Assembly: GCA_010093995.1 (NCBI GenBank)
Contig: ML992501.1
Coordinates: 954,945 to 1,017,541 of the forward strand
Direction of reading: 5' to 3'
DNA from: Elsinoe ampelina
Taxonomy: Eukaryota
Length of the DNA stretch: 62,597 nucleotides
This document shows, piece by piece, positions 1,302 through 60,499 of the stretch. The stretch's first letter is position 1; every line of letters starts with the position of its first letter. Both the position numbers and the translations under genes were made by a program. A model generated the notes under the pieces. The model did no database searches. It was not told the origin of the DNA and saw only the letters and a program-made list of their open reading frames with translations.

Positions 1302-3830
1302 GATCACAGCGTACCTTTTATGTTTTGGTGTGTAATTTGAGCCGATGCGACGAGGATAAGGGTCGCTCTCTTGAGCTTGGAAGTGGTGGAATGGATGAGG
1401 TGGTGAAGGATGGACGTGTCGAAAGTGAGAAAGAGGAAAGTGAGCTCAGAGGTGGGAAAAGATTTGTTGATATGATGTAGAAAATTGTGGTGGTCGAGCT
1501 GTCCTAGCTTTTGGGGGGAAAGGGGAGGGTCAACGGCGGAAGTGGCGGGGCATGTGATGGACTTTTTCTTCAACGGAGAAAGGCAACAACGGCGAACAAA
1601 TTTTAATTGCAGAATCTGGAGAAGGAGCTTACAGGCAGGTGTGTGCATTGGACCTGACTAGACCTTGCGATATCGCCTAGCCATGTCCGTAGCCTCACGA
1701 AAGTGTGTGCGCTGTTTGTTGTGTCTTATCAAGCGGTTCGGTGAGCACACTACACCGTATCGCCATAGCTCCTTACCAATGACGTGTGGTCCCCTGTCTA
1801 TCATTCTTACGATGCTCCATATAATACCCACCACCAACACTCAACCAGAAACAGAGATTTCCAGCATTCGACCCTCCCAGGCCGTGGGTTCGCCTGCTGA
1901 CGTTTGGACCAGTGAGATGACGAACTGAAACCACGCTCAATAGTCCAGGAGGCGCAACGGACGTGGGGAGTGACGGCCAAACGACCATCCGACAGTACCA
2001 AGATTGGATGCAATCAGGCACAGGTCGCGCCATGTCCAACGTCGTGCCCTTTGCCCTTGTGATGGCGTCCAAGCTCTCGTTTGGATGTGTAAAATCAGGT
2101 CTGGAGGTGGCCAGCCAGGTCGACACGAATCAAGCCCTGACGTCCCGCGGGACTCTTGCTCCTTTTTCGGCCCCCACGCCGAAGGAAAAGTCTTCTCGAA
2201 GGTTTGGCGATATTGGCCCTGCGGATCACTGCAAGGCGGCAGATCTGGTCAAATACCGCCGGCTTTCCCTGCAGATCTGGATCAGGACCCTTGTGGTTCT
2301 GGTCGACGATGTCAACGCGGTGAAGACAGGCGAAAAGCTTCGTTAAGCGGACTCCGAGATCGCCACTGGCAGTTCAGCCGTCGTATTCTCAGCGTGTGCA
2401 TAGCTGACTATGGAGACGATCGACCTGCCAGTCCTGCCTCAGCCGGACATATCTCCCTGCATTGACGCAGCCAGGATCTCCCACGTCGCAGATCCCGCAA
2501 ACACCGCCTTTTGCCCACGCTCCCAACACACATGCCACGCTCAGCCCTGCCGCTCCTATGTCGGCTGGAGTCATGAACTCATGAACACACATGTAAATTT
2601 GGAGCGTCCGAATTGTTGCAACCACATAGAGCAGTTGCCGCCCCAGCAGGCTGTCAGTCGCACCCGTTTTGATCGTCGGTGGGTATTCAAAACATCTCCC
2701 TGAGCGATGGGCAGATCTCCCATCCCCAAATTGCAGAGTGGCTGCATCGAGCAGCTCGCTGCCGATGAGAAGATGCGCAACGCTTGACTTGACTGGATCT
2801 GCATCTTTACAAATGTCATGCAGGATATAGCATCTTGCGGTTCTACGTCCATCGGACACAACATTGCATAGATCGCAGTATCATACTGGTCTCGCCGACC
2901 TTCAAAAGTGGTAGGTGTGGACGGGTGGCATGTTCCCCTCTCCGCAAGCTTGAGACAGCATTGTGATAAAGGCTGGGGAGTTACGGTCTCCTCGCTGCTC
3001 TCCCAGGCATTGAGACTGCTGCATCGTTTCAGAGATATCAGGAAGGGCACGTCGACTGTTACCAACACATCATGGAGACAAAGGACCACATTGGTTGAGA
3101 AGTGAAAAATGGGCATGTCTGCAGACTACCATCAAGCCGCACGGAGAGGTCAATGGCACAAGAAAAGCTAGACGTTGAAGCCCCAGATTGATATTGTCCA
3201 GCTTTAACAATGATAAGCGAACAGAACAATTGACTCCAATGCAATGTCCTTGGAGGCATCGCTGGTGGGCGCCAAGAATCTCCACAAGGCCGCAGCGGCG
3301 TTAGGAGACCGGATATGTCAGCACTTCACGCGGCGCGATGACAATCCTGCTTACACATTCCAAGGCGTGTCAGAAGCTTCATATGTGTCCGTCTGCAATT
3401 CAAGCATTGGGACAAGGATGTTGGGCAATTAGACCAATCGTGCAAGGGAAATGCCAGGCAATTCCATGAAGAAAAGGGTGCGGGAGGACACTTTTTTTCG
3501 TTGAGACAAACGATGCCATGACGTCGTGATACCGTCCGCCGTGTCAAAAGGTGCCGAAACCCTTCACTCTGGGTCATTTTCTTTAACGCCATTTATCAGC
3601 GACCTCTAAAGTCCGAGATCAGCACAACGTAGGTCACCTCCTTCGGGCTTTCTCTTTCGCTTAACACCTGCAACATCGTGCTGTGCAGCTTGATGGGCAG
3701 CGCATTTCAATTCGTGATCCTCGATAAAGGGACCATCTCACCGTCCAAAGCCGTTGCCACTTAATGAATAAAACCATTATAATCCTTGCACCACAAGCGT
3801 CACAGTACACGACCATCAACATAATTCAAG

Positions 3831-6800
3831 ATGTGGCAGAACGGAGTCGACGAAGGTCGCATCCAACGTACTCAGTCTAACCTCAATCAATGGCACAATA
3901 TTTCCGCTCCTCTGCCCGATAATGACGGCCTTCATGAACAGCATAGTCCCGAAGAAATGGAGGAAGTTGAAGACAGTCCTGATAGATCAGGCACCTGGGG
4001 TGAACGAGATGCCGGAGCCCCCAACGAGGCTTCAGCTATGGCTGATTTCGAGGCATTACGGCGGGAACTCTCAAATCTTTCTCGAACACGCTCACGACCA
4101 GATTCACTTACCCGCCAGTCTACTCGCAACCGAATGTCTCTGCGGCGTACTAAGAGTTCACACGCAGACGAGGAAGCTGGTCAAGGAGATGGCGACGATG
4201 CCAGATCAGACGACGACTTCTCGCTCGACAACTTTATGAGAGAAGGTCACTTCGAGAAGCGGAAAGACGGCAAGTCGGCCAAGAAGGTTGGTGTCCTTTA
4301 CAAGAACCTCACAGTCCAAAGCGTGGGAGCGACAGCGGAATTCGTCAAGACCCTTCCGGATGCCATCCTCGGTACATTTGGTCCAGATCTTTGCCGCCTG
4401 ATCTCACGCTTAATTCCTGCCCTCAAGTCATCAAAGGGTGAACGACGAAATCTTATCAACGACTTCTCCGGTGTCATCAGGGACGGTGAAATGATGTTGG
4501 TGTTGGGCCGACCGGGTAGTGGATGTTCTACCTTCCTCAAAGCCATCGCCAATGACCGAGAGGCCTACGCTGCCGTCACTGGCGATGTATCATACGGGGG
4601 CATCCCAGCCGAAAAGCAAGCAAAGATGTTCCGCGGCGAGGTCAATTACAACCCAGAGGACGACATCCACTTTCCGACCCTCACCGTCTTCCAGACCTTT
4701 GTCTTTGCCCTCATGACAAAGACGAAGAAGAAGGCCGCGCAAGACATTCCTCTCATCGCCAATGCTCTCATGAAAATGTTCGGCATCAGTCACACCAGGA
4801 ACACAGTGGTCGGTAACGAATACGTTCGCGGTGTCAGTGGTGGTGAGCGGAAACGAGTATCCATTGCGGAGACTCTGGCATCGAAGTCTACAGTCGTGTG
4901 CTGGGACAACTCGACCCGGGGACTCGACGCCTCTACTGCTCTGGACTACGCCAAGTCGTTGAGGATCATGACTGATATCAGCAACCGCACCACCCTCGTA
5001 TCTCTCTATCAAGCCGGCGAAGGTATCTTTGAGCTCATGGATAAGGTCATTGTCATCGACGCTGGTCGTTGCGTCTATCAAGGTCCGGCGAACCAGGCCA
5101 GACAATACTTCATCGATCTTGGATTTTATGCTCCAGAACGTCAGACGACCGCCGATTTCCTCACAGCCGTCACCGACCCCAAAGAGCGCCAGTTTCGCGA
5201 CGGTCATGAGGCTTCGACACCGAAAACATCTGAAGAGCTCGAGCAGGCCTTCCATCGCTCGCACTTCTGGGAGCAGAACATGCAAGAGATCCAGGCGTAC
5301 GAAGAGTACCTCAAGGATACCGGACATGCAGACGCCAAAGAATTCGAAGGTGCCGTCCAGGAGGGCAAGTCGAAGACCGTGGCCAGAAAGTCTAGCTACA
5401 CTGTCAGCTTCTGGCGACAAGTCCTCGCATGTACGCAGCGAGAGTTCTGGCTGCTCTTTGGTGACAAGACCACCCTCTATACAAAGGCTTTTATCATCAT
5501 TGCCAATGGTCTAATCGTCGGCTCCCTCTTCTACGGTCAACCTCTCGACACTTCCGGCGCGTTCTCTCGAGGTGGCAGCACCTTCTTCAGTATCCTCTTC
5601 CTCGGCTGGCTCCAACTCACCTGCTTAATGGATGCCGTTTCCGGAAGAGCAGTCGTCTCTCGTCATCGTGATTACGCATTCTACCGCCCATCTGCCGTCA
5701 CCCTCGCACGAGTCCTTGCCGACTTTCCTATCATTCTCGTCCAGGTCATTGTCTTCAGCGTCATCATGTACTTCATGAACAGCTTGGATCTCGACGTCTC
5801 CAAGTTCTTCATCTACATGCTATTCGTCTACTGCACAACCATTTGCATCACTGCCCTTTACCGGATGTTCGCAGCGCTCTCACCGACGATCGACGATGCT
5901 GTCCGCTTCTCTGGTATCGCTCTGAACCTGCTTGTCATCTACACAGGCTACGTCATTCCCAAGACGCAGCTCTTGAGCAAGTACATCTGGTTCGGGTGGT
6001 TGTACTGGATCTCACCCGTATCTTACTCGTTTGAGGCGGTACTTGCCAACGAAGTCGCCGACAGAAACATGACCTGTGCTCCGTCGAACCTTGTCCCGCA
6101 AGGTCCTGGCGTTGATCCTGCATTCCAAGGTTGCGCCTTTGCCGGTGCAGACGTCAATGCAAAATACGTCAACGGTGAAGCATACCTCAACTCGCAATTC
6201 GACTACTCCAGGTCCCACCTGTGGCGCAACTTTGCAGTCGTCATCGCTTTCACTCTACTCTACCTTCTGGTCACGGTTTTCGCAGTCGAGGCTTTTAATT
6301 TCGTCAAAGGCGGTGGAGGCGCACTTGTGTTCAAGAAGACCAAGAAGGCGAAGCAGGCTATCAAGGAGGCTTCTCCAGCGGACGAGGAAAAAGCCACTGG
6401 CGATTCTGGTGACAGCTCGAGCGGAATTCTGGCGACTTCGCAAGATGTGGAGAAGGACGAGAATGACGCGCTCGAGAAAATCTCTGGGAGTCAAAGCGTC
6501 TTCACCTGGCAGGATGTCGAATATACTGTGCCATACGGGAATGGTGAACGTAAGCTTCTGAACAAGGTTTCTGGTTATGCTAAGCCTGGTGTCATGGTGG
6601 CTCTGGTCGGTGCTTCTGGCGCTGGCAAGACCACCTTGCTCAACACACTCGCCCAGCGCCAATCCACAGGTGTAGTGTCCGGAGATATGCTTGTCGACGG
6701 TAAACCGCTCGGAAAAGAGTTCCAGCGTGGTACTGGCTTTTGCGAACAGATGGATTTGCATGACGGGACCGCTACCATTCGTGAGGCTCTCGAGTTCTCC

Positions 6801-8480
6801 GCCATCCTTCGTCAGGATGCTTCGATCCCTCGATCCGAAAAGATTGCTTATGTCGACAACATCATTTCTCTCCTCGAAATGAATGAGATCCAAGACGCAA
6901 TCATCTCTTCGCTGGGTGTGGAGCAACGCAAGCGTCTGACCATCGGTGTGGAGCTGGCTGCCAAGCCCCAGCTATTGCTTTTCCTGGATGAGCCAACGTC
7001 AGGTCTCGATTCACAATCAGCATGGTCTATCGTACAGTTCCTCAAGCGTCTGGCTCGCGCCGGACAAGCTATTGTCTGCACAATCCATCAGCCTTCGTCC
7101 CAGCTCATCCAACAATTCGACATGATCCTCGCCCTCAATCCCGGCGGCAACACATTCTACTTCGGTCCAGTCGGTGAGTCCGGCGGCGAAGTCATCAAGT
7201 ACTTCGCCGACCGCGGCGTCCAATGTCCCCCCAACAAGAACGTCGCCGAATTCATCCTCGAGACCGCCGCCAAGAAGCCAAAAGGTAAAGACGGCCGCCG
7301 CATCAACTGGAACGAAGAATGGAAAAACAGCGACCAAGCCGCCGCCGTCCTCGACGAGATCAACGGCCTCAAACGCACCCGCTCCGAAGCCGCCCCCTCC
7401 ACCACCAGATCCGCGCCAGAAACCGAGTTCGCCGCCTCCATCCCCCTCCAAACCGCCGAGCTCACCAAACGTGTCTTCCGCCAATACTGGCGCGATCCAT
7501 CCTACCTCTACGGCAAACTCTTCGTCTCCGTCATCGTCGGAATCTTCAACGGCTTCACCTTCTACGCCCTCGGCTTGTCCATCCAAGACATGCAGAACCG
7601 CATGTTCACCTCCTTCCTCATCATCACCATCCCCCCCACCATCGTCAACGCCGTGGTCCCGAAATTCTACTCCAACATGGCACTCTGGCTGGCGCGCGAA
7701 CACCCCTCGCGCATCTACGGCTGGGTGGCCTTCACCACCGCGCAAGTAGCGGGGGAGATCCCCATCTCCATCGTCGGCGCGGTCCTCTATTGGGCGCTGT
7801 GGTACTGGCCCACCGGCCTCCCCCGCGACTCGGAAACAAGCGGGTACACGTTCCTCATGACCGTCCTGTTCTTCCTTTTCCAGAGCTCCTGGGGCCAGTG
7901 GATATGCGCCTTTGCCCCTTCGTTTACGGTCATCAGCAACGTTCTGCCGTTTTTCTTCGTCATGTTCTCGCTCTTCAACGGGGTTGTGAGGCCGTATGCT
8001 TCGCTGCCTGTCTTTTGGAGGTACTGGATGTACTGGGTCAATCCGTCTACGTACTGGATCGGGGGTGTACTGGCCGCGACGTTGCGGGGGGTGCCGGTCA
8101 GGTGTGCGGAGAATGAAGTCGCGCGCTTCACGGCGCCGCAGGGGCAGACTTGTGGGAGTTATGCTGGGGCTTTTGCGAGGCAGGCTGGAGGTTACTTGCT
8201 TGATGAGGCGGCGACGAGTTGTGAGTACTGTCCGCTCAGCAGTGGGGATCAGTATCTCTCGCAGTTGAATTTGGATAGTGGGCATATGTGGCCGTATTTG
8301 GGGATCTTCTGCATTTTTGTCGTCAGTAACTGGGCATTGGTGTACTTCTTCATCTGGACGGTGAGGATCAAGGGGTGGAGTTTTGGTTTAGGAAAGGTCT
8401 TCGGGAGCTTGGGTAAGGTGGTTGATTGGGTGAAGGGAAAAGTCGGGAAAAGGGACAAGGGGGAGAAGCAAGACGCGTAG
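3831..8480 (+). CDS. Full-size PDR-type ABCG multidrug transporter (NBD-TMD)2, intronless, 1549 aa
   Basis: GRPGSGCST, VSGGERKRVSIAE and CWDNSTRGLD in NBD1; GASGAGKTT, LGVEQRKRLTIGVEL and LDEPTSGLD in NBD2; two hydrophobic multi-TM blocks. Confidence 0.96.
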   Translation: MWQNGVDEGRIQRTQSNLNQWHNISAPLPDNDGLHEQHSPEEMEEVEDSPDRSGTWGERDAGAPNEASAMADFEALRRELSNLSRTRSRPDSLTRQSTRNRMSLRRTKSSHADEEAGQGDGDDARSDDDFSLDNFMREGHFEKRKDGKSAKKVGVLYKNLTVQSVGATAEFVKTLPDAILGTFGPDLCRLISRLIPALKSSKGERRNLINDFSGVIRDGEMMLVLGRPGSGCSTFLKAIANDREAYAAVTGDVSYGGIPAEKQAKMFRGEVNYNPEDDIHFPTLTVFQTFVFALMTKTKKKAAQDIPLIANALMKMFGISHTRNTVVGNEYVRGVSGGERKRVSIAETLASKSTVVCWDNSTRGLDASTALDYAKSLRIMTDISNRTTLVSLYQAGEGIFELMDKVIVIDAGRCVYQGPANQARQYFIDLGFYAPERQTTADFLTAVTDPKERQFRDGHEASTPKTSEELEQAFHRSHFWEQNMQEIQAYEEYLKDTGHADAKEFEGAVQEGKSKTVARKSSYTVSFWRQVLACTQREFWLLFGDKTTLYTKAFIIIANGLIVGSLFYGQPLDTSGAFSRGGSTFFSILFLGWLQLTCLMDAVSGRAVVSRHRDYAFYRPSAVTLARVLADFPIILVQVIVFSVIMYFMNSLDLDVSKFFIYMLFVYCTTICITALYRMFAALSPTIDDAVRFSGIALNLLVIYTGYVIPKTQLLSKYIWFGWLYWISPVSYSFEAVLANEVADRNMTCAPSNLVPQGPGVDPAFQGCAFAGADVNAKYVNGEAYLNSQFDYSRSHLWRNFAVVIAFTLLYLLVTVFAVEAFNFVKGGGGALVFKKTKKAKQAIKEASPADEEKATGDSGDSSSGILATSQDVEKDENDALEKISGSQSVFTWQDVEYTVPYGNGERKLLNKVSGYAKPGVMVALVGASGAGKTTLLNTLAQRQSTGVVSGDMLVDGKPLGKEFQRGTGFCEQMDLHDGTATIREALEFSAILRQDASIPRSEKIAYVDNIISLLEMNEIQDAIISSLGVEQRKRLTIGVELAAKPQLLLFLDEPTSGLDSQSAWSIVQFLKRLARAGQAIVCTIHQPSSQLIQQFDMILALNPGGNTFYFGPVGESGGEVIKYFADRGVQCPPNKNVAEFILETAAKKPKGKDGRRINWNEEWKNSDQAAAVLDEINGLKRTRSEAAPSTTRSAPETEFAASIPLQTAELTKRVFRQYWRDPSYLYGKLFVSVIVGIFNGFTFYALGLSIQDMQNRMFTSFLIITIPPTIVNAVVPKFYSNMALWLAREHPSRIYGWVAFTTAQVAGEIPISIVGAVLYWALWYWPTGLPRDSETSGYTFLMTVLFFLFQSSWGQWICAFAPSFTVISNVLPFFFVMFSLFNGVVRPYASLPVFWRYWMYWVNPSTYWIGGVLAATLRGVPVRCAENEVARFTAPQGQTCGSYAGAFARQAGGYLLDEAATSCEYCPLSSGDQYLSQLNLDSGHMWPYLGIFCIFVVSNWALVYFFIWTVRIKGWSFGLGKVFGSLGKVVDWVKGKVGKRDKGEKQDA

Positions 8481-10268
8481 AAGACCAGACTGATCAAGGT
8501 GCATTGGTATAGCATAGCGATTTGTGAGGCATACTTACATGGTCTCGCTATGGTAGAATGAACCTTCAAACTTCAGGACTGTTAATAGTCCTTACCTGTC
8601 CGCTTCTGTGGTGTTTGCGACAACCTCTCGTCGGCTTTGGTATATGTGTTCCCCCTTATATCTGTTTCGACTCTTGCGATGGAATGTATCTAGATGTTCT
8701 TCGTCGCGTTTGGTCTTCCTGATCCAAGGTTGGCGACTTGTGTCTCCAAGCCATCTGTTCTTTCTCTCGCCGTGAAGTGTCTGTATGGATCCGTCGATGC
8801 ATGCCGGTTACTGTCCGGGTGTATGATACTTGCTGCGTTGGGGCTTACTGATGATTCTGTGGTCATCACCCGCCTCATAGGACGTCTGGAGAAGAGTTTT
8901 TTGATGGTATAACGATGCTTTCCGTCTATTGTCGGTGATGCTGATGTTCTACTGATTAGGATATTGGCGCTGCTGATGCTTGAGCCCGGTATGAGATTGA
9001 CAACGCGTCTCTTGACATTCTCATGCTTGACACCTGTGTTGCGCCCCATGTCCTTTGGCGATGCCCTGTTTCACCAATCTGTTGACGACGCCTTTGTCCC
9101 TTTTCAGATCCAGCAGATGTCATCACCGAAGTACGAAACTGATGGAATTTTGAAGAAGCAGATGACGATAGTCTATCGAGTGTGATCACGCGTTTGTGCG
9201 ACTCTTTGTTTCGTTGTCCAGGAGCTGAAAATGGTGACGTGCTCTTTCTCGTAGGATGTCGAGGTCGACGAGGATGATTGTAACGAGGACCTGGTGAGAT
9301 AGGACCTATTTTGTCGGAGTCTACGGGTCAGTCCCCTATTGACGCGTCGTTGGGATTGGAGTATATATACCTTTGGGTGACTCATACATGACTGTGTTGT
9401 GATCAAGTCCTCATCAACGACATCATGGTGGAGTTGAAACTCTTTGAGAGGCTTCTATGGACTCATTGTCGGATCTTGAAGTCATTTGTATCGATGACCT
9501 CGTCGCCAGAGCTGAACTTGTCGACGCGAAATTTGCGAATATCTCAAAAGATGTAATCGGATTGCCAATGATTTCACGGATCGTGATAAGGGCAGCAGTG
9601 AGATCACAAGATACTGTCAGTGTATTACGTGGACTCTGGTGCTGTATGCTCCGAATGTTCATGCTCTTGATAGTCGCGTGATCCGTCACTGCTCCCTTTT
9701 TGAGAAGGATTTGATTTGTGAAAAGCGCGTCCGTCGAAGATCATGGCTGACGATGATTGTCGTAGCTGGATGAGATGGAAGAAGGGTGAGAAATAGGTGT
9801 CGAATCTGTCGATTGAGGTATACCATCTGCCCTGAGAAAAGATGAAGTAGTTGATGTCAACGAGGAAAAAGTGACGAGTAAATGTAAGTCTGAGCACTAC
9901 GAGCAAGCCGTAGCTCAAGATGCCATGGTCATGCTTGAGTGAACCACAAAAGTTGAAAGCATTGGGTGGGTGTGGCAGCAGCTTCTCGGAGTACCGAGGA
10001 TGACAGAAGAGACACCCGGTAGAAGAGACGCAAGTATCGCATAGACGCGCCGCCCACGCAACAAGAACACAGCTATGCTTGTGCGACCAAGCACTCCCCA
10101 AATAGTCTGTTCTCTCAACCTCGTGCAGTAGGCGCGTGCGTCGTGAGTCAAGAGCCAGTCATCTACCTTACCTCAGGTATACGTGAAGGAATCTCTTTCA
10201 GCTCACTTCTCAAAACAAATATCATATATCATTAAACATGGCTCGTCGTCGTGCTCAACTGAAGATTC

Positions 10269-10411
10269 GGCATCGTGGCGGAGTGGTTGTAAGTACGACC
10301 TGTTCGTTTGATGGCGTTGGAGTACTAATCGTTGTAGAACGCGCTGCCCTGCTATATCGAGATTGCTAGGCAGTACCTTCGGGTGCGCATGTTCGAATCA
10401 TGCCGATGTCG
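10269..10411 (+). tRNA. tRNA-Ser(GCU) with a 49-nt spliceosomal-type intron in the D-loop (10289-10337) and a 13-nt canonical 37/38 intron (10355-10367)
   Basis: Acceptor GGCATCG/CGATGTC plus discriminator G; D stem GCG/CGC; anticodon stem CTGCC/GGCAG with GCT at 10351-10353; variable arm TACC-TTCG-GGTG; T arm GCATG-TTCGAAT-CATGC. Mature length 81 nt. Confidence 0.9.
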
Positions 10412-10414
10412 TCC

Positions 10415-10419
10415 TTTTT
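10415..10419 (+). terminator. Pol III oligo-T terminator of tRNA-Ser(GCU)
   Basis: TTTTT starting 4 nt after the discriminator base. Confidence 0.7.
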
Positions 10420-10843
10420 GCTCCTGATAGCCACTAGGATGAAGAAATGTAGCCGAGGGGATGGATCGGTGATTCAGTCTGCACACTAAGAGAGGGGGTC
10501 AATCTGGCTAGACTCGCCTTTTGCGGGTCACATTTCGACCAACTCTGAAGAGAAATTAAGTGTTAGCACGTGAATGAGAACGAGAGCTTCCTGCAATAGA
10601 GCGATAACAGATGCAGCTGTACACGGATCCACTATCTTGCATCACGCAACTTGAGGGCAACTCGAGCTGTATGATATTTTCTTTCGTGCTGCAAGGGACT
10701 ACAGCACTCGCTGCCAGCACGAGGCTGCATTGCGAGTAGCATGTAGGATGGCCGGTAAAGCTACACTATGAGCAAGCAAAAAGTCAGATGAAGGCATGGT
10801 GAAACTGTCAAAAATGGTTCTTGTCACACACTTACCACCAATC

Positions 10844-10853
10844 AAAAACAAAA
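10844..10853 (-). terminator. Pol III oligo-T terminator of tRNA-Ser(AGA)
   Basis: Minus strand reads TTTTGTTTTT starting 8 nt after the discriminator base. Confidence 0.7.
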
Positions 10854-10860
10854 GGTACGT

Positions 10861-11055
10861 CGACTTCGATGTGATTCGAACACACGCTTTGACGCATCAG
10901 TAAAGGCTCCCAAGAAGATAGACGCATTGATCTCACCTCCCGAAGGAACAAGCTAGCGGTCAATGACCTGGTTCTAGGCTTGCTGATATTTCATTAGTCG
11001 TGCACCCCTGCAGACCAGGGAATACGAACCGCGATAACCACTCCGCCACGAAGTC
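10861..11055 (-). tRNA. tRNA-Ser(AGA) with two spliceosomal-type introns (11029-10983, 47 nt; 10936-10887, 50 nt) and a 17-nt canonical 37/38 intron (10971-10955)
   Basis: Spliced product GACTTCG TG GCG GAGTGGTTAT CGC G CAAGC CT AGA AA GCTTG TTCC TTCG GGAG C GTGTG TTCGAAT CACAT CGAAGTC G (81 nt). Acceptor and anticodon stems pair fully, and the long Ser-type variable arm and G73 are present. Confidence 0.9.
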
Positions 11056-11934
11056 CGGAAGCTGCCGGTGACGAGGTTGTAACAATATATGATGAGCAAT
11101 GTTTGAGGCCTTTGACATGGTCGAGTACGAAGGCCGAGTGCGAATTTCGCTGGACAATGGCTCAAGCTTTGACATGGGTCGCACACACGCTGGAGGAGGA
11201 TTGTGGGAGAATGTAGGCAGACCTCATCAATCTTCAAAACGTTATCGTATTAGTTCTGGCCAAATAAGATCGCGTGGAAGTGGCATCTCTACAGAGATGA
11301 CATGGGGATCCGGTCCGTCAGTAGCACTGTAGAGGGCCATCGAGACCTGCTTTCCACGCCGGAGCAAGAGTAGCCGAGGACGGGTTCGACGATCTCGCTT
11401 GAATGGTGGGTGTGGCTCTTTCCGCGTCAGATGCGCTGTTCAGCTCTGGTGCCAATCAAATTTGATGATTTCGGAACTCATATTGGTACGCGCTGAGAGT
11501 ATAAACCGCTCGATCACGCGCGAAAATTCCCAAGTTGCTGCCGACGTACTGAAAATGATTTAGACCGCATCGTATTTCATCTTGGCTGTGTATGTACAAT
11601 GTGGTCGGTTGGCCCATTGCTCTACGGGCCAAAATACTTTCGTTGTATGCGTATAGCTTGGACGCGAGTTACCAAGCAGCAAGCGGTTGATCCGTCACGA
11701 GAGTGAAGATCTGGAAATGGCTGAGGTGTCGCCAGCCTCCATATGAGTGGAGTGAGTCAATCGGAGTCGTGTTTGCTCTCGACCGATGTCGGCGCGCCGC
11801 GATGTGAGAGAGTCGCGGGGTTAAGCTCTGCTCCAAATTGATCGAATCAACTCAATAGGAGGTACATACTTTCCTGTCTTGCAGGTTGACTATGGTCCTG
11901 GAATATGGCGTTGAACCGGTCAATGTTATCATGC

Positions 11935-12861
11935 TCAGTCTGCGCCGAAATTCCAGTCGTCGAGATCAGCGTCATCATCATCGTCTTCTTCATCTTCTTC
12001 GTCATCCTTGCCCGCGTTTTGAGCTTGAGTATCGCCTACAATCTGACCGGTACCTCCAGTATTGCCAGACACCCCAGTCATCAGTTCATCCTTGATCTGC
12101 CCAGCGTGTTCAGGGAGAATCGTCGAAGAGCCTTTTCTGAGAGCCTCCCTCTTCTCTCTCAGCTTCCGGACTCTCTCTTCCAGCTCATCCATCTCGTCGA
12201 ACTCAGCTTGGAGAGCCTCTTGTGCATCGTCTCGCTCTTCCTCGAGCTCTTGTTCTCGCCGACCCCTCTGTATGCTTTGCTCTTCTCTCGCTTTGGCCGC
12301 AAGCTCTTCCGCAGTCATGGGCGCCGCTGATATTGTCGCGTTGGCATAGACTTGTTGCTGTGAAGATTTGTCGCTCTGCACGGGCTCGTCCAGCATCTTC
12401 TGCAATTCCAGCCATTCCGGATCGTCCTCGATTGCAAAATCTTTCACTTGACGGGCGGTACTTGACTGTGCTTGATCGGCCTTGCCTTGTGACAGTTCCT
12501 GTACCACCTGCGCTTCCGCATCTGGCTCCTCGCTGACCTCGATTCGAGGTATCTGAGCTCTTCTGCCGTCATCGTCATCGTCGTCGCTGTCGCCTCGTGC
12601 TCGCTTTCGTGTGTCGTCCTCTTCATCACTGCCCGCCTTTCGCTTCCTGCTGTTTGCCTGTGTCTTACTAGCTTCCGCCGCACGTAATGCTCGCTTAGCA
12701 TGCTCCGGTGTCTTGAGATGGCTGTTCCACTGTGCTTCCGACTTGATTGCGTGTTCGCAGAGCGTGCATTGTACATTGCCGTTGTCCGTATAGCGTGCGT
12801 AGGGATGAGTGACGCGCCTACTTTGACGGGATGCAGAGAGCAATGCGCGGGCGTCGGTCAT
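11935..12861 (-). CDS. ZNF830/CCDC16-like zinc-finger coiled-coil protein (308 aa from ATG 12861)
   Basis: N-terminal HPYARY..CTLC..W..HL...EH finger, RKRK NLS-like motif, acidic coiled coil, acidic C-terminus ending DDW. Confidence 0.75.
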   Translation of the reverse strand: MTDARALLSASRQSRRVTHPYARYTDNGNVQCTLCEHAIKSEAQWNSHLKTPEHAKRALRAAEASKTQANSRKRKAGSDEEDDTRKRARGDSDDDDDDGRRAQIPRIEVSEEPDAEAQVVQELSQGKADQAQSSTARQVKDFAIEDDPEWLELQKMLDEPVQSDKSSQQQVYANATISAAPMTAEELAAKAREEQSIQRGRREQELEEERDDAQEALQAEFDEMDELEERVRKLREKREALRKGSSTILPEHAGQIKDELMTGVSGNTGGTGQIVGDTQAQNAGKDDEEDEEDDDDDADLDDWNFGAD

Positions 12862-13116
12862 GGTTGTTGTGCTGGAATACTGCAAAGGAGCATAGAGAAA
12901 GAATGTGACAAGCAGTCGAAGATTGTTTGCACCGTTTGCAACCCGTGCTCGAGTGAAAGACGTCTGAGGTGTGTGGAGCCAGGGAAGGTGCGCCGAGGTC
13001 CACACGGATTTGGCGCGGCGGAAAATCCAACGTCGGCTTTTGCTCACCTGCAGTAGTTTCGTGGTCTGGTAGCACAAAGAATCGTGCATCATCCAATAAT
13101 AGCAATTTCTTTGATA

Positions 13117-15082
13117 ATGCGACCCTCTGCTTCATCTCCAGACAATGGAGATGATGATAGCGCCTCCAGTACCGGCAGCGGCGTGAGCATCCGACAGGAC
13201 AGTGAAGGATGGGAAGACCTCGAACCTGATGTAGAGACGATTGAGGTCAAGGACTTCTTCAGCGATGCGATGTTTTCAAGTGCGAAACAGATGCTTGATC
13301 ATTGCAAGAACGCACATGGCTTCGATTTTATCGGCACACAAAGAACTCTCGGTGTGTGCGTCAGTCCTTTGTCCAGCGACGGACCCGCCTTCTAACATAG
13401 CACAACAGGACTTGACTTCCTGGAGAGCATTAAGCTCGTCAACTATCTCCGGAAAGAGGCTCAGGCTGGTCAAATTATCTCGCAAGTCGATTTCAAGGAC
13501 AAGTTCTCAGCCGATGCTTTCCTACAGCCATCACTCGAGAATGACGCCCTCCTTTTCTCTCTGGACGAGGTGCTGGATGCGGAGGACGACCCACAGACCA
13601 ATGGAGATCATCCAGAGGCTACTAACGGTGACCATGAGAGCTCAGCAGAGTTGAAGCAGAGGCTCCAGGACCTCGAGGACCGCTTCGCCGAATACCGACT
13701 TGAAGTGGCAAAAACGCTAGACCAAAGATGGAACGACAGAACAGAAAACATAGCCAGCTCATCGAAGAGCAAAAGCGACGCCGAGATCGACGAAAAGTAT
13801 GACAGGGGTTACTTTGAGACTTACTCTTACAACGGTATGTGCCATGCACTCTGCATCCAGCTCGCTGTCGCCGGTCCCCCTTGTCTCTTGCTCAGCATTG
13901 TGCTCTTCGTGAACACGGTCGGTCGTTCCAAGCGAATGGTCGTATTCCTACAACACGGCGTAAAGCCGCCGTCCCGAAAACCTTTCCTCCTCAACCAGTA
14001 CACCAAGAAATGACTACACCTCTGCCTCGAATCAACGATGAATGGAGCTGACATCGATTCCAGAGATCCATCAGATCATGTTGCAGGACAGTGTTCGCAC
14101 CGATGCGTACCGCGACTTCATCTACGGAAATAAGCATCTCTTCAAAGACAAGGTGGTGCTTGACGTAGGTTGTGGCACCGGTATCCTATCCATGCTCTGT
14201 GCAAAAGCAGGAGCAGCAAAGGTCATTGCCGTCGACAACTCGGATATCCTCAATAAGACCAGATCGATCCTCTATGCGAACAAGCTCGATGGTGTGGTCA
14301 CTTGCGTGAAGGGCAAGATCGAAGAGATCTCTCTGCCCGATGGGATCGAGAAGGTTGATGTGCTGGTGAGTGAATGGATGGGATATTGCCTGCTCTTCGA
14401 AGCAATGCTTGACTCCGTTCTGTATGCCCGAGATCGCTACTTGAAGCCGGGAGGGTTGATGGTGCCCAGCCACTGCACGATGCAAGTGGGGGCGCTCGCT
14501 GATCCGGACTATGTCGAGGACAACTTCTCATTCTGGCAGGACGTATATGGCTTCGACATGACTGCGATGATGGAGAAGATCTATGATGATGTGTTAGTGC
14601 GATCTCCTGCAGCTTCTGCCATTGCCGGTCGCACCAAGGACAGGGAGCCATTCCAGGTCCTCGACCTGCACCGTGTAACAAAGGACCAGCTTGACTTCCA
14701 GACGCCCTTTACGTTAGTTCTAGAGCGCGACGTCGACTCTTTGGATGGCTTCTGTGTGTGGTTCGACACAATCTTCTTGACGAGTCCGGACCAGGAAGTG
14801 CCTCCACAGCTCCGACGTGGTGATGGTTTCGCCACCAAGTCAACAGAAGGTCCAGTCTTCTTCTCAACTGGCCCATTCACGAAGACGACTCATTGGCAGA
14901 CTGGTCTCTGCATGATCGACCCGAAGCAAAGTGGCGGCAATGCTTTGAAAGAAGGCTCTTTGATCGAGGGTACGATTTCTGTGGAGAAGAACAAAGAAGA
15001 GAAGAGGGCGATCAACATTGACTTAAGCTGGAAGGTCGGCCCTGATTCAAAGGCCAAGCGACAGCTCTGGTTCATGCGTTAA
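13117..15082 (+). CDS. RMT3: Type I protein arginine methyltransferase PRMT3/Rmt3-like; introns 13352-13408 and 13835-14063
   Basis: N-terminal HCKNAHGFDF..LDF..IKLVNY region, YSYNEIHQIMLQD across intron 2, VLDVGCGTG, SEWMGY and THW loop. Confidence 0.88.
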
Positions 15083-15349
15083 TGTAATCGGACTTTTCGA
15101 GGAATGGTTGCGGGTTATGAATTGGGACATGAACGGGGTACTTTTGCTGGTCTTGGCAAGGTGATGCTCTGCCGTCTATACCAAATCCACAGAGCTTCAC
15201 TCCAATTCCTCACTTCCCGTCACCTTACCAAATCCTTTTCGCAATCTCCTTTGATTTTACACGCCCCGTAGGCTTGTCAAGAAGCTCTTTCGCTACCTCG
15301 TTGCCTATATACACGCTCACAAAGACTTCACCCGTCCCTCACGAGCACC

Positions 15350-40000: not shown

Positions 40001-40053
40001 AGAATCCTGTCTTCGGCTCTGGGTTGCGCCTGAGATTTGCGAGTGGACCTCAT
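37003..40053 (-). CDS. RAD4: DNA repair protein Rad4/XPC
   Basis: Transglutaminase-like ARLVCSLQP, FWVE and DVTRRYA; BHD motifs FKDHPHYALERHL, VPKNVYGNID and DYADAVTGFQF. Confidence 0.93.
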   Translation of the reverse strand: MRSTRKSQAQPRAEDRILAITSGAGRRSKPEVTSVPDVYRSLLSEASDPSKLDDRPRKRRRVGEGSRAQPVNVDDAEDDIFEEVPIPGNAASNPQTVVDSDHSDHSDFDEWEEVGGATVPASDENGVDDNVGDVTVEVNANRSTPKRTRKKALTTADRTLALSVHKAHVLLLLFHAHVRNRWCSIKQVETSLRRILSAKVVALLNPQSNLVQLRQSESFLEGLKLAMDIWNRKYKVITFGLHRPKWADPDELSQVRERIVEDGESLTKNDFIEATKTLSGSQDLGNQLFCAMLRAVGVEARLVCSLQPLPPSTASQKLITPQKTKPTKPRIHATFEHDDEFSTSDESKAKAAGPRRRLGQPTLGGPVGNYQHMPTPPPKKKVRKLDYPVFWVEALNPAYSKWVAVDPIVTETVSRAHKLEPPASYEGNTMSYVIAFEEDGFAKDVTRRYAKSFNAKTRKQRVESFPDGQRWINKALKPFRRGEITDRDQIEEAELTKKEAQEGLPNNIQDFKDHPHYALERHLKRNEVIWPKREVGKTTAGKASTLEPIYRRSDVQVVQSADKWYRQGREIKAGEQALKHVPARSHRQKSPYSDNEEPEMTALYAHYQTEEYVPPPVVRGKVPKNVYGNIDVYVPTMIPAGASHVRHPMAKKAAQVLSIDYADAVTGFQFKGRHGTAVVQGIITASMHKEAVAATIQGFLEAQQQSEDDARSAECLRLWRRFLLGLQIADRIGLSDIHAANAEQDKDFKQELDDAEDDHDDAVDAGGFFPDSGADNVAQPTGTGAKAHETTTSALLRAPLVDEESAVKSEGTPIIIIDSPHTVHTSEAEPIKPSSRPAPEEQLQTQNVAGLSSRNKIDLGGGFLPEQIHTGGGFIPTAEDQSGGFLPDENDELGGGFLPDPSDAQDSITVKPIQGHAARSDSEHEVGDLFEEQKQDTQPPEAGGSMLSDSLGVDTQITYPTFEEETKTDNDEFDPPDIDMEGEELSHAEGGSGSERASLLSHDPEDEDADPEWLDD

Positions 40054-40344
40054 CGTCGCCAACCTCCAGTCTTGTTCGTGTTCTTCTCAATTTGAGCTTG
40101 CGTTTCATGCCGCAAGCCGTGAATGGCGACGACGAGAGTGACGGTGGTGTCGTCTATAACGCGAGCGTGAGTCCATGCTGTTTATGGGTATGCTGACCGA
40201 ACCAGAGAAGTGGAAGGTCAGAGCGAAGTCGCCGGATTCGAGCCCGTAGAGGATGACGTCAAACATGACTCGCGCATCAGCCGCAAACGCGACCGAACGC
40301 GTCCAAGGCTCAATTTTTTTAGTCGTAGCACACCAAAACTCCAC

Positions 40345-41830
40345 CACCAAATTGCACACCTTTATAACACTACCAATTTTGCTCCAATTGCTTTGATTTT
40401 TTTCCTAATAAACTTGCCATAGCCGAATTATGTTATGCAAATTTATATATACTAACTCTAGAGGCTAGTTAGTAGTATACTAAGAGGCATAAGTAGCCTA
40501 CTCTAATCCGCGCTAGCTGTCACGCCCTAAGAGTAGCACTACTACTACCTAGATGTACTAAATTCCCTATAAGCTAGATATTAGATATAATAAAGATTCC
40601 TAAGTATTCTATATAGTAGATACTTACTAGACTAGCTCGGAGATCTAGATCTAAGCAACCTAGAAGAACCTCTATTATTAACAAATGTCTACTCTGTCGT
40701 ATCTAGCGCTTTGTCAACTATAGCTTTAGTAATGCTAAAAAGACTTACTAGTAGCTAGTAGACTTATTCTATCTAGGTGTTAACTCTTAGACACTATATA
40801 GAGCTATATAAGACTATAGTATCTTTAAATTCAAGGCTAAATAGAAGGGCTAGCTAAAGGCTAAGAATATAGTAGCTTATAAAGCATAGGCTAAAATCTA
40901 CCGCTATAAAGACTTAGACTTCTAGAAAAGTATTAGATTTACTAACGAGTCTTATTTTTACTATAACTTAAGAGCTATTACTATAATCTATCGCCGCCGA
41001 GGCTAGAGGAACTAGCTAAATAAGATCTAGTTTAAAAAGAAGACTACAAAGACAATAGTATATGTCTAGAGGATAGTTAGCTACAGCTTTAAGTTAGAGC
41101 TTATATTCTACTCTAATTTGCTACTACTAAAGACAATTGACAAGTAGAAGGCTATACTAGAGGCCGACCTTCTCGATATTAACCCCTAGCCTTTAGGAGC
41201 TATTCTTAAGACGGAGGAGGCTAAGTTATGCCTATTAAACGACTTATAGCCTAGCTATAAGCACTAGTATAAAGACAAGGCAAATTGCAAATACAACTAC
41301 TATAAGAAGTAACCCTTAGTGCTTACTATCGGTAGCAACCTTAATTAATTTACCTATCTTTATAGCATCTTTATCCCCTATATTAAGAAGTACTAGAACA
41401 ATATATAGTTTAAGAAGAAAGCCTTTATACTAGAAGAAGATAATAATAGCGCTTATAACACTTGATCGACCTATAATCTAGTTAAGCTATATAAAGACTC
41501 TCTACTAGGCTTCTAATATTACGCTAATTGCGCTAAGTTACCTAATATAGCTATTATTAAGACCTACTAGTAGAGGATTAAGTAGCGTGTTAAGCGACGT
41601 ATACTAGTAACTAATAAAGAGCTTAAACGCTTTATTAAAGAAGAATAGGAGGATATACTATAGGATTAGATAGATAAGCTAGTAGAGGAGATACTAGATA
41701 GAGTATACTAGCTATAGCAATGTCAAGGTAAAAGCACTAACTATTAAGTACTTACACCTTTAATTTAATAGTATAACTATTCACTACATTAATTACAGCT
41801 TCATACAATAAGAATTGAGCGTAGCCTATG
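40345..41830 (+). mobile_element. RIP-mutated Tc1/mariner-type DNA transposon relic (ends approximate)
   Basis: AT/TpA-rich island. Relic motifs FTNESYF (FTDESHF, ~40938), LEEDNNSAY (~41430) and LPNIAIIKTY* (SPDxxxIExxW, ~41540). TIRs were not resolved. Confidence 0.75.
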
Positions 41831-42070
41831 AAGAAGCACTGTTTGTATACAAAAAGTGGTGAAGCCGGTACGGCTTGGCGGGCCCGTGCGCCATGATTTC
41901 TGAAAGTGGGCCTTGGTCGACCTCGGATGGACAGCCTTGACGGAGCTGAACGTCAGTCACCTCATGAGCACTTCCGACCGTCACAATCTTCCCTAGTAGA
42001 TCACCTCACTTTGACCGCAGAGCATACTTTATGCAGTAGAGCATACTTCTAAATATGCTATCTGGACTTC

Positions 42071-49318: not shown

Positions 49319-50728
49319 TCATAGATCGTCCGCATCGACGGCCTGCACAATGATACCAGTCGCAGCACCGCCTCCATTGCAAATCGCGGCAAGACCGTAT
49401 TCGCCCTTCTTGAGCTGGTGAAGCAGAGTGACTACGATTCGCGCGCCAGAGCTACCAATGGCGTGACCAAGGGAAATCGCGCCACCTCGGGGGTTGACAT
49501 TCTCGATTCCAAGTTCGAGGATCTGAGAAGAGGGTCAGCAGAGCCTTCAGTAGGGCTTCATCATCCTTACCTTTGCGTTCGCCTTGATGACAGCCGCAAA
49601 TGCTTCGTTGAACTCCCAGATCTTGATGTCGCTCTTCTTCAGCCCTGCTCTCTCGAGCACAATAGGTACGACCTTTGCTGGGGCAACAGGGAAATCAATC
49701 GGGTCCACTGCAGCGTCTGCTGTGGCTACAATTCTCGCCAGTATCTGCTTGCCCTTTCCGTACTTCTTCGCGAGCTCTCTGTTACCCAGCACAAGCGCAG
49801 AAGCACCATCGTTGAAACTCGAGCTGTTCGCTGCTGTGACGGATCCGCTGCCGCTCCTGTCGAACGCCGGCTTGAGGGTGGGCACCTTCTCCAGCTTAAG
49901 CTTGTTGTAGCCTTCGTCTTCCTTGACGACGGTGTCGCCCTTTTTGCCCTTGACTGTCACCTCGACGATCTCATCCTTGAATAGCCCCTTGCTCCAGGCT
50001 TCCTGTGCCCGCTTGTATGACAGGATCGCGAATTCATCCTGCTCTTCCCGGGTGAGCTTGTACTTCTTGACTGTATTCTCCGCGCACATTCCCATGTGTA
50101 TTTGGTTGTAGACATCCCACAGACCGTCCGAGATGAGCCCATCCAGTAGCTTCTGCTCGCCGAAAGGTGGTTGTTGCGAAGCTCGCGGTAGATAATATGG
50201 TACCCGCGACATGTTCTCCATTCCACCCGCTATTTGTGCCTCGGCGAGACCAAGCATGATGTTGTGGCTCGCGACCGTGATTGCCTTCATACCTGAGGCG
50301 CAGACCTTGTTGATGGTTGTGGCTTCGGTAGTGGGCGAGAGACCAGCAAAGATGGCTGTTTGTCGTGCTGGCGATTGACCACTGTTCGCTTGGAGAACTT
50401 GGCCCATGTAGACATCTGTTATCCGGTCTTGAGGTACGGAGGAACGAGAGATCGCTTCTTTAATTGCGTACGAGCCGAGGACAGGGGCAGAGACGGAGGA
50501 GAGAGAGCCATTGAACTAGAGACGGAGGTCAGAGCAGGTTTTCGTACTTGGAGAGCATAGTCATCGTACCACACCAGTTGGCGTTCGCACACCACTTATG
50601 ATATATGCATCTTGGATCTCTTTGCTTCGAGTCGTCGTTTGGCTGAACAGACGAGCGTGAGGGGGGTGTGTGTGTCTGGGAGCGTTGCGGCAGGTGGCAG
50701 TGAGCCTGGAGCTCAGTCTGGCAGACAT
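49319..50728 (-). CDS. Acetyl-CoA acetyltransferase (thiolase II, Erg10-like) with probable mitochondrial presequence, two introns
   Basis: [34 protein letters not shown] and AICNGGG motifs. Confidence 0.93.
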
Positions 50729-51039
50729 ATCACCGGGTAGGATTGTAAACTTGCGGGCGCGACAGGTGTCAGATAGGTAGAAAGAGAATTGCAAACAGGA
50801 TCATCTCGGTATAGACCGAGGAGCTACCGTCCTCCACAGCGGAAAGACGTTCCGGGGAAGTGCGGAACATACTTTCACATGCTAGCTCGGCAATTGTCGG
50901 CTTAACAGAAGAGGCGGAGGGGGAGCGGCTTGCATGACTCGAGCCAACAGCACGTGACTCATGGTGCATGTCAGCTTGTGTGTGGGGAGAATGAGATTTA
51001 TTACTGCCTGATCCACCAAACTGAGGTGGATTGTAACTA

Positions 51040-60480: not shown

Positions 60481-60499
60481 GTATTTAATAGCTTATAAG

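Follow-up and report, generated by a model that had tools for sequence, protein, structure and literature searches.

Two tRNA-Ser genes lie tail to tail in the window (the whole 62.6-kb stretch of DNA that was analysed): tRNA-Ser(GCU), hereafter gene 1, on the forward strand, and tRNA-Ser(AGA), hereafter gene 2, on the reverse strand. Each gene contains a canonical tRNA intron at position 37/38 and, in addition, inserts that begin with GT and end with AG, of which gene 1 has a single one and gene 2 a pair. The first-pass annotation had described a convergent pair of serine tRNA genes at this site, and all the parts that it described are present, with 449 bp between the two 3' ends. The features are as follows, with the gene limits taken from the sequence and from ARAGORN after insert removal:

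10221-10229, + strand: ATCATATAT, TATA-like motif, 48 nt upstream of gene 1
10269-10411, + strand: tRNA-Ser(GCU) gene 1
10269-10288, + strand: gene 1 exon 1; 5' acceptor strand, A box TGGCGGAGTGG, D-loop to GGTT
10289-10337, + strand: gene 1 GT-AG insert, 49 nt, in the D-loop; donor GTAAGT, acceptor TAG
10338-10354, + strand: gene 1 exon 2; 3' D-stem strand, G26, 5' anticodon-stem strand, loop CT-GCT-A
10355-10367, + strand: gene 1 canonical 37/38 tRNA intron, 13 nt, 3' end GCT
10368-10411, + strand: gene 1 exon 3; 3' anticodon-stem strand, long variable arm, T arm with B box GTTCGAATC, 3' acceptor strand, discriminator G
10415-10419, + strand: T5 run, Pol III terminator-like, 4 nt past gene 1
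11085-11093, - strand: ATCATATAT, TATA-like motif, 38 nt upstream of gene 2
11055-10861, - strand: tRNA-Ser(AGA) gene 2
11055-11030, - strand: gene 2 exon 1; 5' acceptor strand, A box, entire D arm, G26
11029-10983, - strand: gene 2 GT-AG insert A, 47 nt, between positions 26 and 27; donor GTTCGT, acceptor CAG
10982-10972, - strand: gene 2 exon 2, 11 nt; 5' anticodon-stem strand, loop CT-AGA-A
10971-10955, - strand: gene 2 canonical 37/38 tRNA intron, 17 nt, 3' end GCT
10954-10937, - strand: gene 2 exon 3, 18 nt; 3' anticodon-stem strand, variable arm
10936-10887, - strand: gene 2 GT-AG insert B, 50 nt, at the variable arm/T-stem junction; donor GTGAGA, acceptor AAG
10886-10861, - strand: gene 2 exon 4; T arm with B box GTTCGAATC, 3' acceptor strand, discriminator G
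10853-10844, - strand: TTTTGTTTTT (T4-G-T5), Pol III terminator-like, 7 nt past gene 2

Recovery of both tRNAs after insert removal

After the GT-AG inserts had been cut out by coordinates with a script, ARAGORN identified a Ser(gct) and a Ser(aga) tRNA with anticodon-loop introns of 13 and 17 nt, respectively. Both restored cloverleaves are of class II, with every stem paired and a long variable arm, and in our own reading of the sequence both genes carry G73. The anticodons GCT and AGA, together with the cloverleaves, were recovered only when the inserts (47-50 nt each) were removed exactly at their GT and AG ends, folding requiring the removal of one insert from gene 1 and two from gene 2. 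The in silico evidence thus supports both loci as tRNA-Ser genes in which the A and B boxes and the T-run terminators are intact.

The canonical introns lie one nucleotide 3' of the anticodon, and a count of possible pairs identifies the anticodon stem as the outer helix. As the first-pass annotation had pointed out, both end in GCT, so that G(-3) could pair with C32. Both genes therefore have the features of canonical TSEN-type tRNA introns, namely the 37/38 location and a possible anticodon-intron pair.

It had further been claimed that such genes escape tRNA finders, and this is borne out for two of them: on raw DNA, ARAGORN and Rfam miss or mis-call both genes. Default ARAGORN returned no tRNA, and in Rfam no tRNA appeared between 9000 and 12500 at E-values up to 10, with no family at all reaching the gathering score in the whole window. 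ARAGORN run with introns allowed (-i option) called Asp(atc) and Lys(ctt) tRNAs with 'introns' of 53 and 109 nt, which we judged to be nonsense. A split-aware tRNA scan of the window returned these two genes only, both with GT-AG inserts (2/2). A B-box-like site near 19774 was rejected as a third tRNA gene, as the complementary T-stem strand is missing (our own reading).

Splice signals in the three inserts

In all three inserts, GT and AG are placed exactly at the boundaries that restore the RNA, as expected of U2-type spliceosomal introns. Each insert also contains the branch motif CTRAY close to its 3' end: ACTAAT at 9 nt in the 49-nt insert of gene 1, ACTAAT at 11 nt in the 47-nt insert A, and ACTGAT at 10 nt in the 50-nt insert B of gene 2. 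When random segments of 47, 49, and 50 nt were drawn from that part of the window with normal GC content, 56 of 299,708 contained the pattern GT..CTRAY(7-25 nt)..AG, or 1.9e-4 per insert. Allowing for alternative placements (x20, x2, and x3), the joint chance of the signals in the three inserts is about 8e-10. This in silico evidence supports the view that the three inserts are built in every part like short fungal spliceosomal introns.

Local mRNA introns are similar to the inserts in both length and arrangement. Of the introns nearby, three are supported by RNA contigs; their lengths are 57, 229, and 50 nt, and the distance of their branch motifs from the end is 13, 12, and 7 nt, respectively. 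The 16 predicted introns in the window that join open reading frames have a median length of 55 nt and a branch distance of mostly 9-13 nt. The branch motif itself differs: all three inserts have CTRAT, whereas CTRAC is found in 15 of the 16 predicted introns and in all three RNA-supported ones. Two of the six splice-site ends are also sub-optimal, namely the GTTCGT donor of insert A (T at +3) and the AAG acceptor of insert B, the latter departing from the YAG end given in the first-pass annotation. Both deviations count against the genes being live.

The three inserts share no similarity beyond the splice signals, in agreement with the first-pass annotation, and we found no copy of any of them elsewhere in the 62.6-kb window. 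Being unrelated, the inserts fit either independent or old gains.

Candidate RNA polymerase III signals

Both genes contain the A box TGGCGGAGTGG and the B box GTTCGAATC, as Pol III genes of type 2 do. The A-to-B spacing of 115 and 167 bp exceeds that of usual tRNA genes; TFIIIC probably tolerates such distances. The T5 terminators that had been described past both genes are present, and a T5 run is found in fewer than 1% of 20-nt windows. Upstream, both genes have the 9-mer ATCATATAT, at -48 in gene 1 and at -38 in gene 2, and the 62.6 kb contain no other copy. It is possible that this motif is an upstream Pol III promoter element; 65 of 5000 random 70-mers match the upstream region of gene 1 over at least 9 nt.

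Two further observations had been taken to indicate Pol III read-through. The inserts indeed contain no T4, the longest T run being 3, but 41% of shuffled inserts are equally free of it (P 0.41), so that this absence carries no statistical weight. Similarly, all three inserts do lie between the A and B boxes, which is weak evidence because about half of the tRNA lies there by our own estimate.

RNA contigs and related loci

One sequencing run is RNA-like, as two GT-AG introns in the neighbouring methyltransferase gene are left out of its contigs. The contigs of this run cover neither tRNA gene and join across none of the inserts, a blank that speaks neither for nor against splicing; in three more runs, from a diverged lineage under the same species label, the tRNA genes are likewise without cover. 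A well-expressed minus-strand mRNA contig ends at 11261, and gene 2 follows on the same strand, 206 nt downstream. In addition, an RNA contig of low depth spans 10614-10835, with its end placed exactly at a GTAAGT on the minus strand, 26 nt past gene 2, and a low-level spliced, unannotated transcript is present in the same intergenic region.

We also scanned metagenomes with a pattern that fits either gene and does not demand GT-AG ends. Among the 20 matches listed, there was no fungal split tRNA-Ser of this kind. Six of these matches represent one AT-rich tRNA-Ser(GCU) with a D-loop insert that is not of the GT-AG type, and the other 14 have no split structure. A contig scan with an exon of the neighbouring methyltransferase gene, aimed at a syntenic fungal contig, gave one weak bacterial match only.

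Discussion

On balance, we lean towards the view that the locus holds two nuclear tRNA genes, both of them live, in a fungus of the Dothideomycetes, and that these would be transcribed by Pol III and would need first the spliceosome and then TSEN for their products to mature. A protein encoded in the neighbourhood is 100% identical to one named from Elsinoe ampelina. Gene anatomy, splice-signal anatomy, and the non-random nature of the signals are observed directly; transcription, the identity of the polymerase, splicing, and the order of events are what we infer. The inserts would be short GT-AG spliceosomal introns acquired at ectopic sites (the D-loop, the 26/27 junction, and the variable arm/T-stem junction), besides the 37/38 intron. 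TFIIIC would bind the intact A and B boxes and TFIIIB the upstream TATA-like ATCATATAT common to both genes, and Pol III would then read through the inserts and terminate at the T5 runs. The nuclear spliceosome would excise the 47-50-nt inserts by intron definition, as in the Pol III-made U6 snRNA of fission yeast, and the L-shaped body would form only after this excision. TSEN could then cut at 37/38, guided by the mature domain and the C32:G(-3) pair, and tRNA ligase would join the halves. Such an order of spliceosome and TSEN, if real, would presumably couple tRNA supply to spliceosome activity. A point against this pathway is that the cap and the Pol II CTD, which normally aid spliceosome recruitment, are missing from Pol III transcripts.

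Alternatively, the genes may be inactivated. Introner-like elements, which according to available excerpts of PMC4457414 exist in Dothideomycetes, or other insertions would have hit two tRNA-Ser genes whose intact copies elsewhere do the work, and the perfect-looking exons would be put down to the recency of the events. We consider this unlikely, even though it agrees with the failure of default ARAGORN and Rfam to see a tRNA here, with the lack of an RNA contig over either gene, and with the sub-optimal state of some splice signals. Neither gene has a damaged stem or invariant position, and no insert touches an A or B box. Random insertion would have difficulty in producing three hits within 162 bp of exon, with two in one gene and both tRNA genes affected; two separate inserts in a single 81-nt gene are very unlikely to have arisen in this way in a dead target. 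The inserts, unrelated and without a copy in the window, are also unlike young introner families. Together with the flawless exons, their lack of mutual similarity and of other copies suggests that the inserts are old and tolerated and that they did not recently land in genes that were already dead.

Two other explanations accept that the RNAs are functional and differ in how they would be made or cut. The genes could be spliceosome-dependent but embedded in longer, spliced Pol II transcripts, from which RNase P and RNase Z would release the tRNA before TSEN acts, much as tRNA-like pieces are cut from long Pol II RNAs. The spliceosome normally works on Pol II transcripts, and the position of gene 2 downstream of the co-oriented mRNA contig, the contig end at GTAAGT just past this gene, and the low-level spliced transcript would all suit such a host. 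Yet no contig links a host exon to either tRNA gene, and since the genes are convergent, two separate hosts would be required. The A and B boxes, the T5 runs within 4-12 nt of the 3' ends, and the upstream ATCATATAT would moreover be needless in a pure Pol II unit, and we regard this explanation as quite improbable. We give very little credence to the idea that the ectopic inserts are cut by the tRNA splicing endonuclease at bulge-helix-bulge (BHB)-like structures, as in Cyanidioschyzon merolae and Archaea, with GT..AG being a coincidence. Available parts of PMC3978253 document ectopic and multiple tRNA introns with BHB motifs well, and a crude pairing count, which looked for two 3-nt bulges with a 4-bp helix between them, allows the central helix at the gene 1 insert. 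This helix, however, would consist of four G.U pairs and the outer helix is not formed, while the other two inserts fail to form the central helix, so that no insert gives a convincing motif at its exact boundaries. The count is also undiscriminating, as 9-11 points out of 12 are often reached within 6 nt of any given site and it did not single out the correct cut in a control, the metagenomic tRNA with the non-GT-AG D-loop insert. BHB cutting would leave unexplained why each of the three inserts combines GT and AG ends with a branch motif at 9-11 nt.

In the textbook view, the introns of eukaryotic tRNAs belong to a system of their own, which consists of protein only (TSEN and ligase) and is confined to position 37/38. 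If the two genes are live, as the Pol III reading holds, the spliceosome can service short, uncapped, and highly structured Pol III transcripts besides U6, and RNA genes of some 80 nt are open to intron gain without loss of the internal promoter. A single RNA would then depend on two splicing machines that have no evolutionary relationship and act in a fixed order. The processing order, the polymerase, and the origin of the introns are all directly testable at this defined locus. Furthermore, split tRNA genes that standard pipelines miss would lead to under-counted gene sets and distort estimates of codon adaptation and tRNA gene number.

A wider proposal, which we advance tentatively and hold to be rather doubtful, is that a large share of the nuclear tRNA genes in Elsinoe, and perhaps in Myriangiales or Dothideomycetes, is split by spliceosomal introns and missed by finders, with Pol III transcripts being handled by the spliceosome ahead of TSEN. 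This might explain tRNA counts of 43-44. According to the accessible text of PMC12941528, tRNAscan-SE found only 43 tRNAs in the near-complete genome of Elsinoe fawcettii, and no tRNA table is present in one supplement of this near-T2T paper. The count is compatible with hidden genes; however, 43-44 tRNAs in another Dothideomycete were read as true gene paucity (accessible text of PMC7181583), so that a low count alone is no proof of them. If the proposal is true, the translation apparatus would depend on the spliceosome through a two-machine tRNA splicing pathway that we did not find described for any organism in our literature search, and introns would have a new route of gain into highly structured RNAs.

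Relation to known systems

No account of spliceosomal introns in tRNA genes came up in our literature search, which did not extend to bioRxiv supplements or subscription journals. The term 'tRNA' is absent from PMC7259788 and PMC8295512 and occurs nowhere in the main text of PMC4457414, the paper on introner-like elements. As described in the available part of the latter, these elements occur in the same fungal class and multiply into new short spliceosomal introns, which makes them a possible source of the inserts. They form families of similar copies, whereas none of the three inserts has a relative among the other two or in the rest of the window.

Similar to the BHB-intron and permuted tRNA genes of Cyanidioschyzon merolae, nucleomorphs, and Archaea, the two genes are broken at non-canonical sites that include the D-loop, contain up to several introns, are invisible to finders, and would need extra processing before a cloverleaf can form (PMC3978253, as far as its available text goes). 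BHB introns are defined by the bulge-helix-bulge and cut by the tRNA endonuclease, whereas the inserts described here end in GT and AG, contain a branch motif, match local mRNA introns in size, and show no convincing BHB. Canonical TSEN introns at 37/38 are present as well, one per gene, and the three other inserts lie elsewhere and have mRNA-type signals.

Spliceosomal introns outside protein-coding genes have precedents. Tani and Ohshima (1989/1991) and Canzler (2016) reportedly described mRNA-type introns in U6 genes, and Bhattacharya et al. (2000) are said to have done so for spliceosomal introns in ascomycete rDNA. In the available excerpts of PMC5855946, the Pol III-made U6 genes of fungi have up to four spliceosomal introns, and such introns are also found in U1, U2, and U5 snRNA genes and in ascomycete rDNA; tRNA is not among the intron-bearing RNAs named there. 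As proposed for the two tRNA-Ser genes, the rDNA represents a gene that is not transcribed by Pol II, although its product is a Pol I ribosomal RNA precursor with no second splicing system.

Fungal U6 is the closest precedent. Both cases concern a small non-coding RNA gene, transcribed by Pol III (for the tRNAs, on the proposed reading), with intragenic promoter elements and several short introns, and many of the U6 introns are lineage-specific, with a canonical 5' splice site, branch, and 3' splice site but no conservation otherwise, similar to the present inserts (PMC5855946, available excerpts). The location of U6 within the spliceosome's active site offers its introns a ready origin by reverse splicing, which tRNA does not have. 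Unlike U6, the tRNAs also contain a TSEN-type intron, so that two splicing systems would act on one transcript.

Two tRNA-Ser genes are interrupted by mRNA-type inserts

A 3.4-kb intergenic stretch contains two tRNA-Ser genes on opposite strands, with 449 bp between their 3' ends: gene 1, tRNA-Ser(GCU), and gene 2, tRNA-Ser(AGA). Both strands of the region were read, and the coordinates were set by script. Besides a canonical anticodon-loop intron, identified by ARAGORN once the GT-AG inserts were deleted, gene 1 carries one GT-AG insert and gene 2 carries two (A and B).

Anatomy of the two genes and their flanks (window positions)
3825-8480, plus: PDR-type ABC transporter ORF, one flank
10269-10411, plus: gene 1, whole
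10269-10288, plus: gene 1 exon 1, D-loop GGTT at its end
10289-10337, plus: gene 1 insert, 49 nt, GTAAGT...ACTAAT...TAG
10338-10354, plus: gene 1 exon 2, remaining D arm, G26, anticodon loop CT-GCT-A
10355-10367, plus: gene 1 canonical intron, 13 nt
10368-10411, plus: gene 1 exon 3, remaining anticodon stem, long variable arm, T arm, acceptor strand, discriminator G
11055-10861, minus: gene 2, whole
11055-11030, minus: gene 2 exon 1, extending to G26
11029-10983, minus: gene 2 insert A, 47 nt, at 26/27, GTTCGT...ACTAAT...CAG
10982-10972, minus: gene 2 exon 2, 11 nt, anticodon AGA
10971-10955, minus: gene 2 canonical intron, 17 nt
10954-10937, minus: gene 2 exon 3, 18 nt
10936-10887, minus: gene 2 insert B, 50 nt, variable-arm/T-stem junction, GTGAGA...ACTGAT...AAG
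10886-10861, minus: gene 2 last exon
11935-13131, minus: ORF, other flank; its RNA contig stops at 11261

After scripted deletion of the inserts by coordinates, ARAGORN returned tRNA-Ser(gct) and tRNA-Ser(aga), with fully paired stems and canonical introns of 13 and 17 nt; when gene 2 kept either of its two inserts, the predictions were wrong or malformed. These cloverleaves bear out the first-pass annotation, which had described two Ser tRNA genes with three mRNA-type inserts, and the observation of split tRNA-Ser genes is confirmed and statistically solid. The same annotation held that standard finders miss such genes, and for two programs, ARAGORN and Rfam on raw DNA, they do. Default ARAGORN reported no tRNA gene in the whole window, and Rfam gave no tRNA match around the locus at E up to 10 and no family at gathering score across the window. 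With introns allowed, ARAGORN forced Asp(atc) and Lys(ctt) calls with "introns" of 53 and 109 nt. A split-aware scan, which required a T arm together with acceptor strands that match across a distance of up to 450 nt, found these two as the only tRNA genes in the window, both with such inserts.

The inserts resemble local mRNA introns

The branch motif precedes the 3' end by 9, 11, and 10 nt in the inserts of 49, 47, and 50 nt, respectively. To estimate chance, 299,708 segments, each 47, 49 or 50 nt long, were drawn at random from GC-normal window sequence: 1,083 of them started with GT and ended with AG, and just 56 of these also had CTRAY 7-25 nt before the end (1.9e-4 per insert). Because tRNA structure does not fix the boundaries fully, the D-loop insert was given a factor of x20 and the gene 2 inserts, from letters repeated at their ends, x2 and x3; the joint chance for all three is then about 8e-10.

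Run X3, a public sequencing run, is RNA-like. In its contigs the neighbouring arginine methyltransferase gene lacks two GT-AG introns, and an unannotated transcript from the minus strand lacks one intron of 50 nt. In these RNA-supported introns (57, 229, and 50 nt; n = 3), CTRAC lies 13, 12, and 7 nt ahead of the end. A scripted search for GTRNGT...CTRAY...YAG segments joining 50-codon open frames predicted 16 intron rows in the window, some being alternative ends of one donor, with a median length of 55 nt and branch distances mostly of 9-13 nt. The tRNA inserts therefore have the size and layout most common among local introns, with three differences of detail: all three have CTRAT (ACTRAT) as branch motif, in contrast to the CTRAC of 15 of the 16 predicted rows and all three RNA-supported introns; the donor of insert A (GTTCGT) has T at +3 and the acceptor of insert B is AAG, both unlike local mRNA introns.

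Pairwise alignments of the inserts scored 1-3 sd above shuffles, with no likeness beyond the shared signals, in line with the lack of obvious mutual similarity noted earlier. Because they are mutually dissimilar and no copy of any insert occurs elsewhere in the window, they do not look, within it, like a young introner family.

Promoter and terminator features

Reading both genes upheld the earlier claim of intact promoter boxes and T5 terminators: the A box TGGCGGAGTGG and the B box GTTCGAATC are present in both, spaced 115 bp (gene 1) and 167 bp (gene 2) apart, with T5 3 nt after gene 1 and T4-G-T5 7 nt after gene 2. T5 occurs in <1% of 20-nt windows. The lack of T4 in the inserts, previously read as a Pol III sign, carries no weight: when insert interiors are shuffled, all three lack T4 in 41% of cases, and the three RNA-supported mRNA introns lack it as well. 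The 9-mer ATCATATAT is common to both upstream regions (-48 in gene 1, -38 in gene 2) and found nowhere else in the window; 65 of 5000 random 70-mers share at least 9 nt with the gene 1 upstream region. In some fungi, tRNA genes have upstream TATA-like Pol III elements, and ATCATATAT is a possible candidate.

Genomic neighbourhood and transcripts

The third exon of the methyltransferase gene matches a protein named from Elsinoe ampelina at 100% identity, and proteins of E. fawcettii, E. australis, and Sphaceloma murrayae at 74-79%; by these identities, the window is Dothideomycete DNA of the order Myriangiales. AT-rich blocks with sharp edges (40001-42000 and 50001-62597; GC 0.28-0.39 versus 0.49-0.58 elsewhere) are isochore-like, as is usual for repeat-degraded DNA in fungi of this kind. 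Runs X4-X6, filed under the same species label, show a few percent divergence from the window over 11227-15200 (e.g. 24 of 425 letters at 13408-13832) and have a 3-nt deletion at 11972; judged by this divergence, they are a distinct lineage under the same label.

No RNA contig covers either tRNA gene, which neither supports nor refutes their transcription. A minus-strand X3 contig (9049-9371, depth 3.9), some 0.9 kb upstream of gene 1, skips 9321-9370, a GT-AG intron of 50 nt (GTATAT..CTGAC..TAG). No long ORF is present there, and the contig has the look of an unannotated, spliced low-level transcript. At 11261 and 13076, the RNA contigs of the two neighbour genes run into sequencing-adapter letters, which mark sharp transcript ends: the minus-strand gene transcript stops 206 nt ahead of gene 2, and 13076 is the start of the methyltransferase mRNA.

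A metagenome scan for relatives of these genes returned 20 loci, none of them fungal relatives, and prokaryotic genome contigs scanned for a syntenic fungal contaminant gave nothing useful. Six metagenome contigs (L002, L014, L015, L016, L017, L019) carry a near-identical AT-rich tRNA-Ser(GCU) with a 40-nt D-loop insert that contains T5 and has ends other than GT-AG; the insert is probably an ectopic intron of the endonuclease type, from an archaeon or protist.

Proposed expression and processing of the split genes

We lean towards live Pol III genes whose transcripts are processed by the spliceosome and then by the tRNA endonuclease (TSEN). Pol III would transcribe both genes, inserts included; the spliceosome would remove the GT-AG inserts before TSEN acts, and TSEN would then excise the canonical 13- or 17-nt intron. 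This reading was the first-pass annotation's own and is partly supported: its structure, splice-signal anatomy, A/B boxes, and terminators stand, while its T4 argument does not. The genes are taken as live because the exons are flawless, the boxes and terminators untouched, 162 nt of exon hold three unrelated inserts, one gene having two, and neither of the window's tRNA genes is spared. That both genes are dead is unlikely, as random insertion could not easily produce this pattern.

The order of events is suggested by the inserts of gene 2 at 26/27 and at the variable-arm/T-stem junction, which break the body from which TSEN measures, and by cell geography, since in yeasts TSEN works outside the nucleus and the spliceosome is nuclear. 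Removal of the inserts by a bulge-helix-bulge (BHB)/TSEN route seems very improbable. A crude BHB count gave no convincing motif at the exact insert boundaries, but it was non-discriminating and failed on a control. It is also improbable, if less so, that the tRNAs are cut from a host transcript made by Pol II. Gene 2 shares its strand with, and lies near, the mRNA end at 11261, and a low-depth RNA contig (10614-10835) stops precisely at GTAAGT on the minus strand, 26 nt past the gene 2 3' end, where a script marks an intron-like segment (10835->10761, minus strand, T5 inside). These two are the only hints of such a host, and the contig end may be chance or point to a longer transcript through gene 2.

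Relation to known systems

Our literature search found no report of spliceosomal or mRNA-type introns in tRNA genes. As many as four introns occur in fungal U6 genes, canonical in their splice signals and otherwise unconserved; U1, U2, U5 snRNA genes and ascomycete rDNA also carry spliceosomal introns, and many introns in such non-mRNA genes still need experimental validation (PMC5855946). The passage of that source on these introns does not mention tRNA. Disrupted and permuted tRNA genes of the BHB type are documented (PMC3978253). The near-T2T Elsinoe fawcettii genome is credited with 43 tRNAs by tRNAscan-SE 2.0.9 (PMC12941528) and the Dothideomycete Peltaster fructicola with 44 tRNA genes, taken as a genuine reduction (PMC7181583); the counts fit hidden genes or a minimal set with every gene needed alike. 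Multi-intron tRNA genes are already known, as are non-mRNA genes with mRNA-type introns, but each separately. If validated, the split tRNA-Ser genes would greatly surprise specialists in tRNA and splicing.
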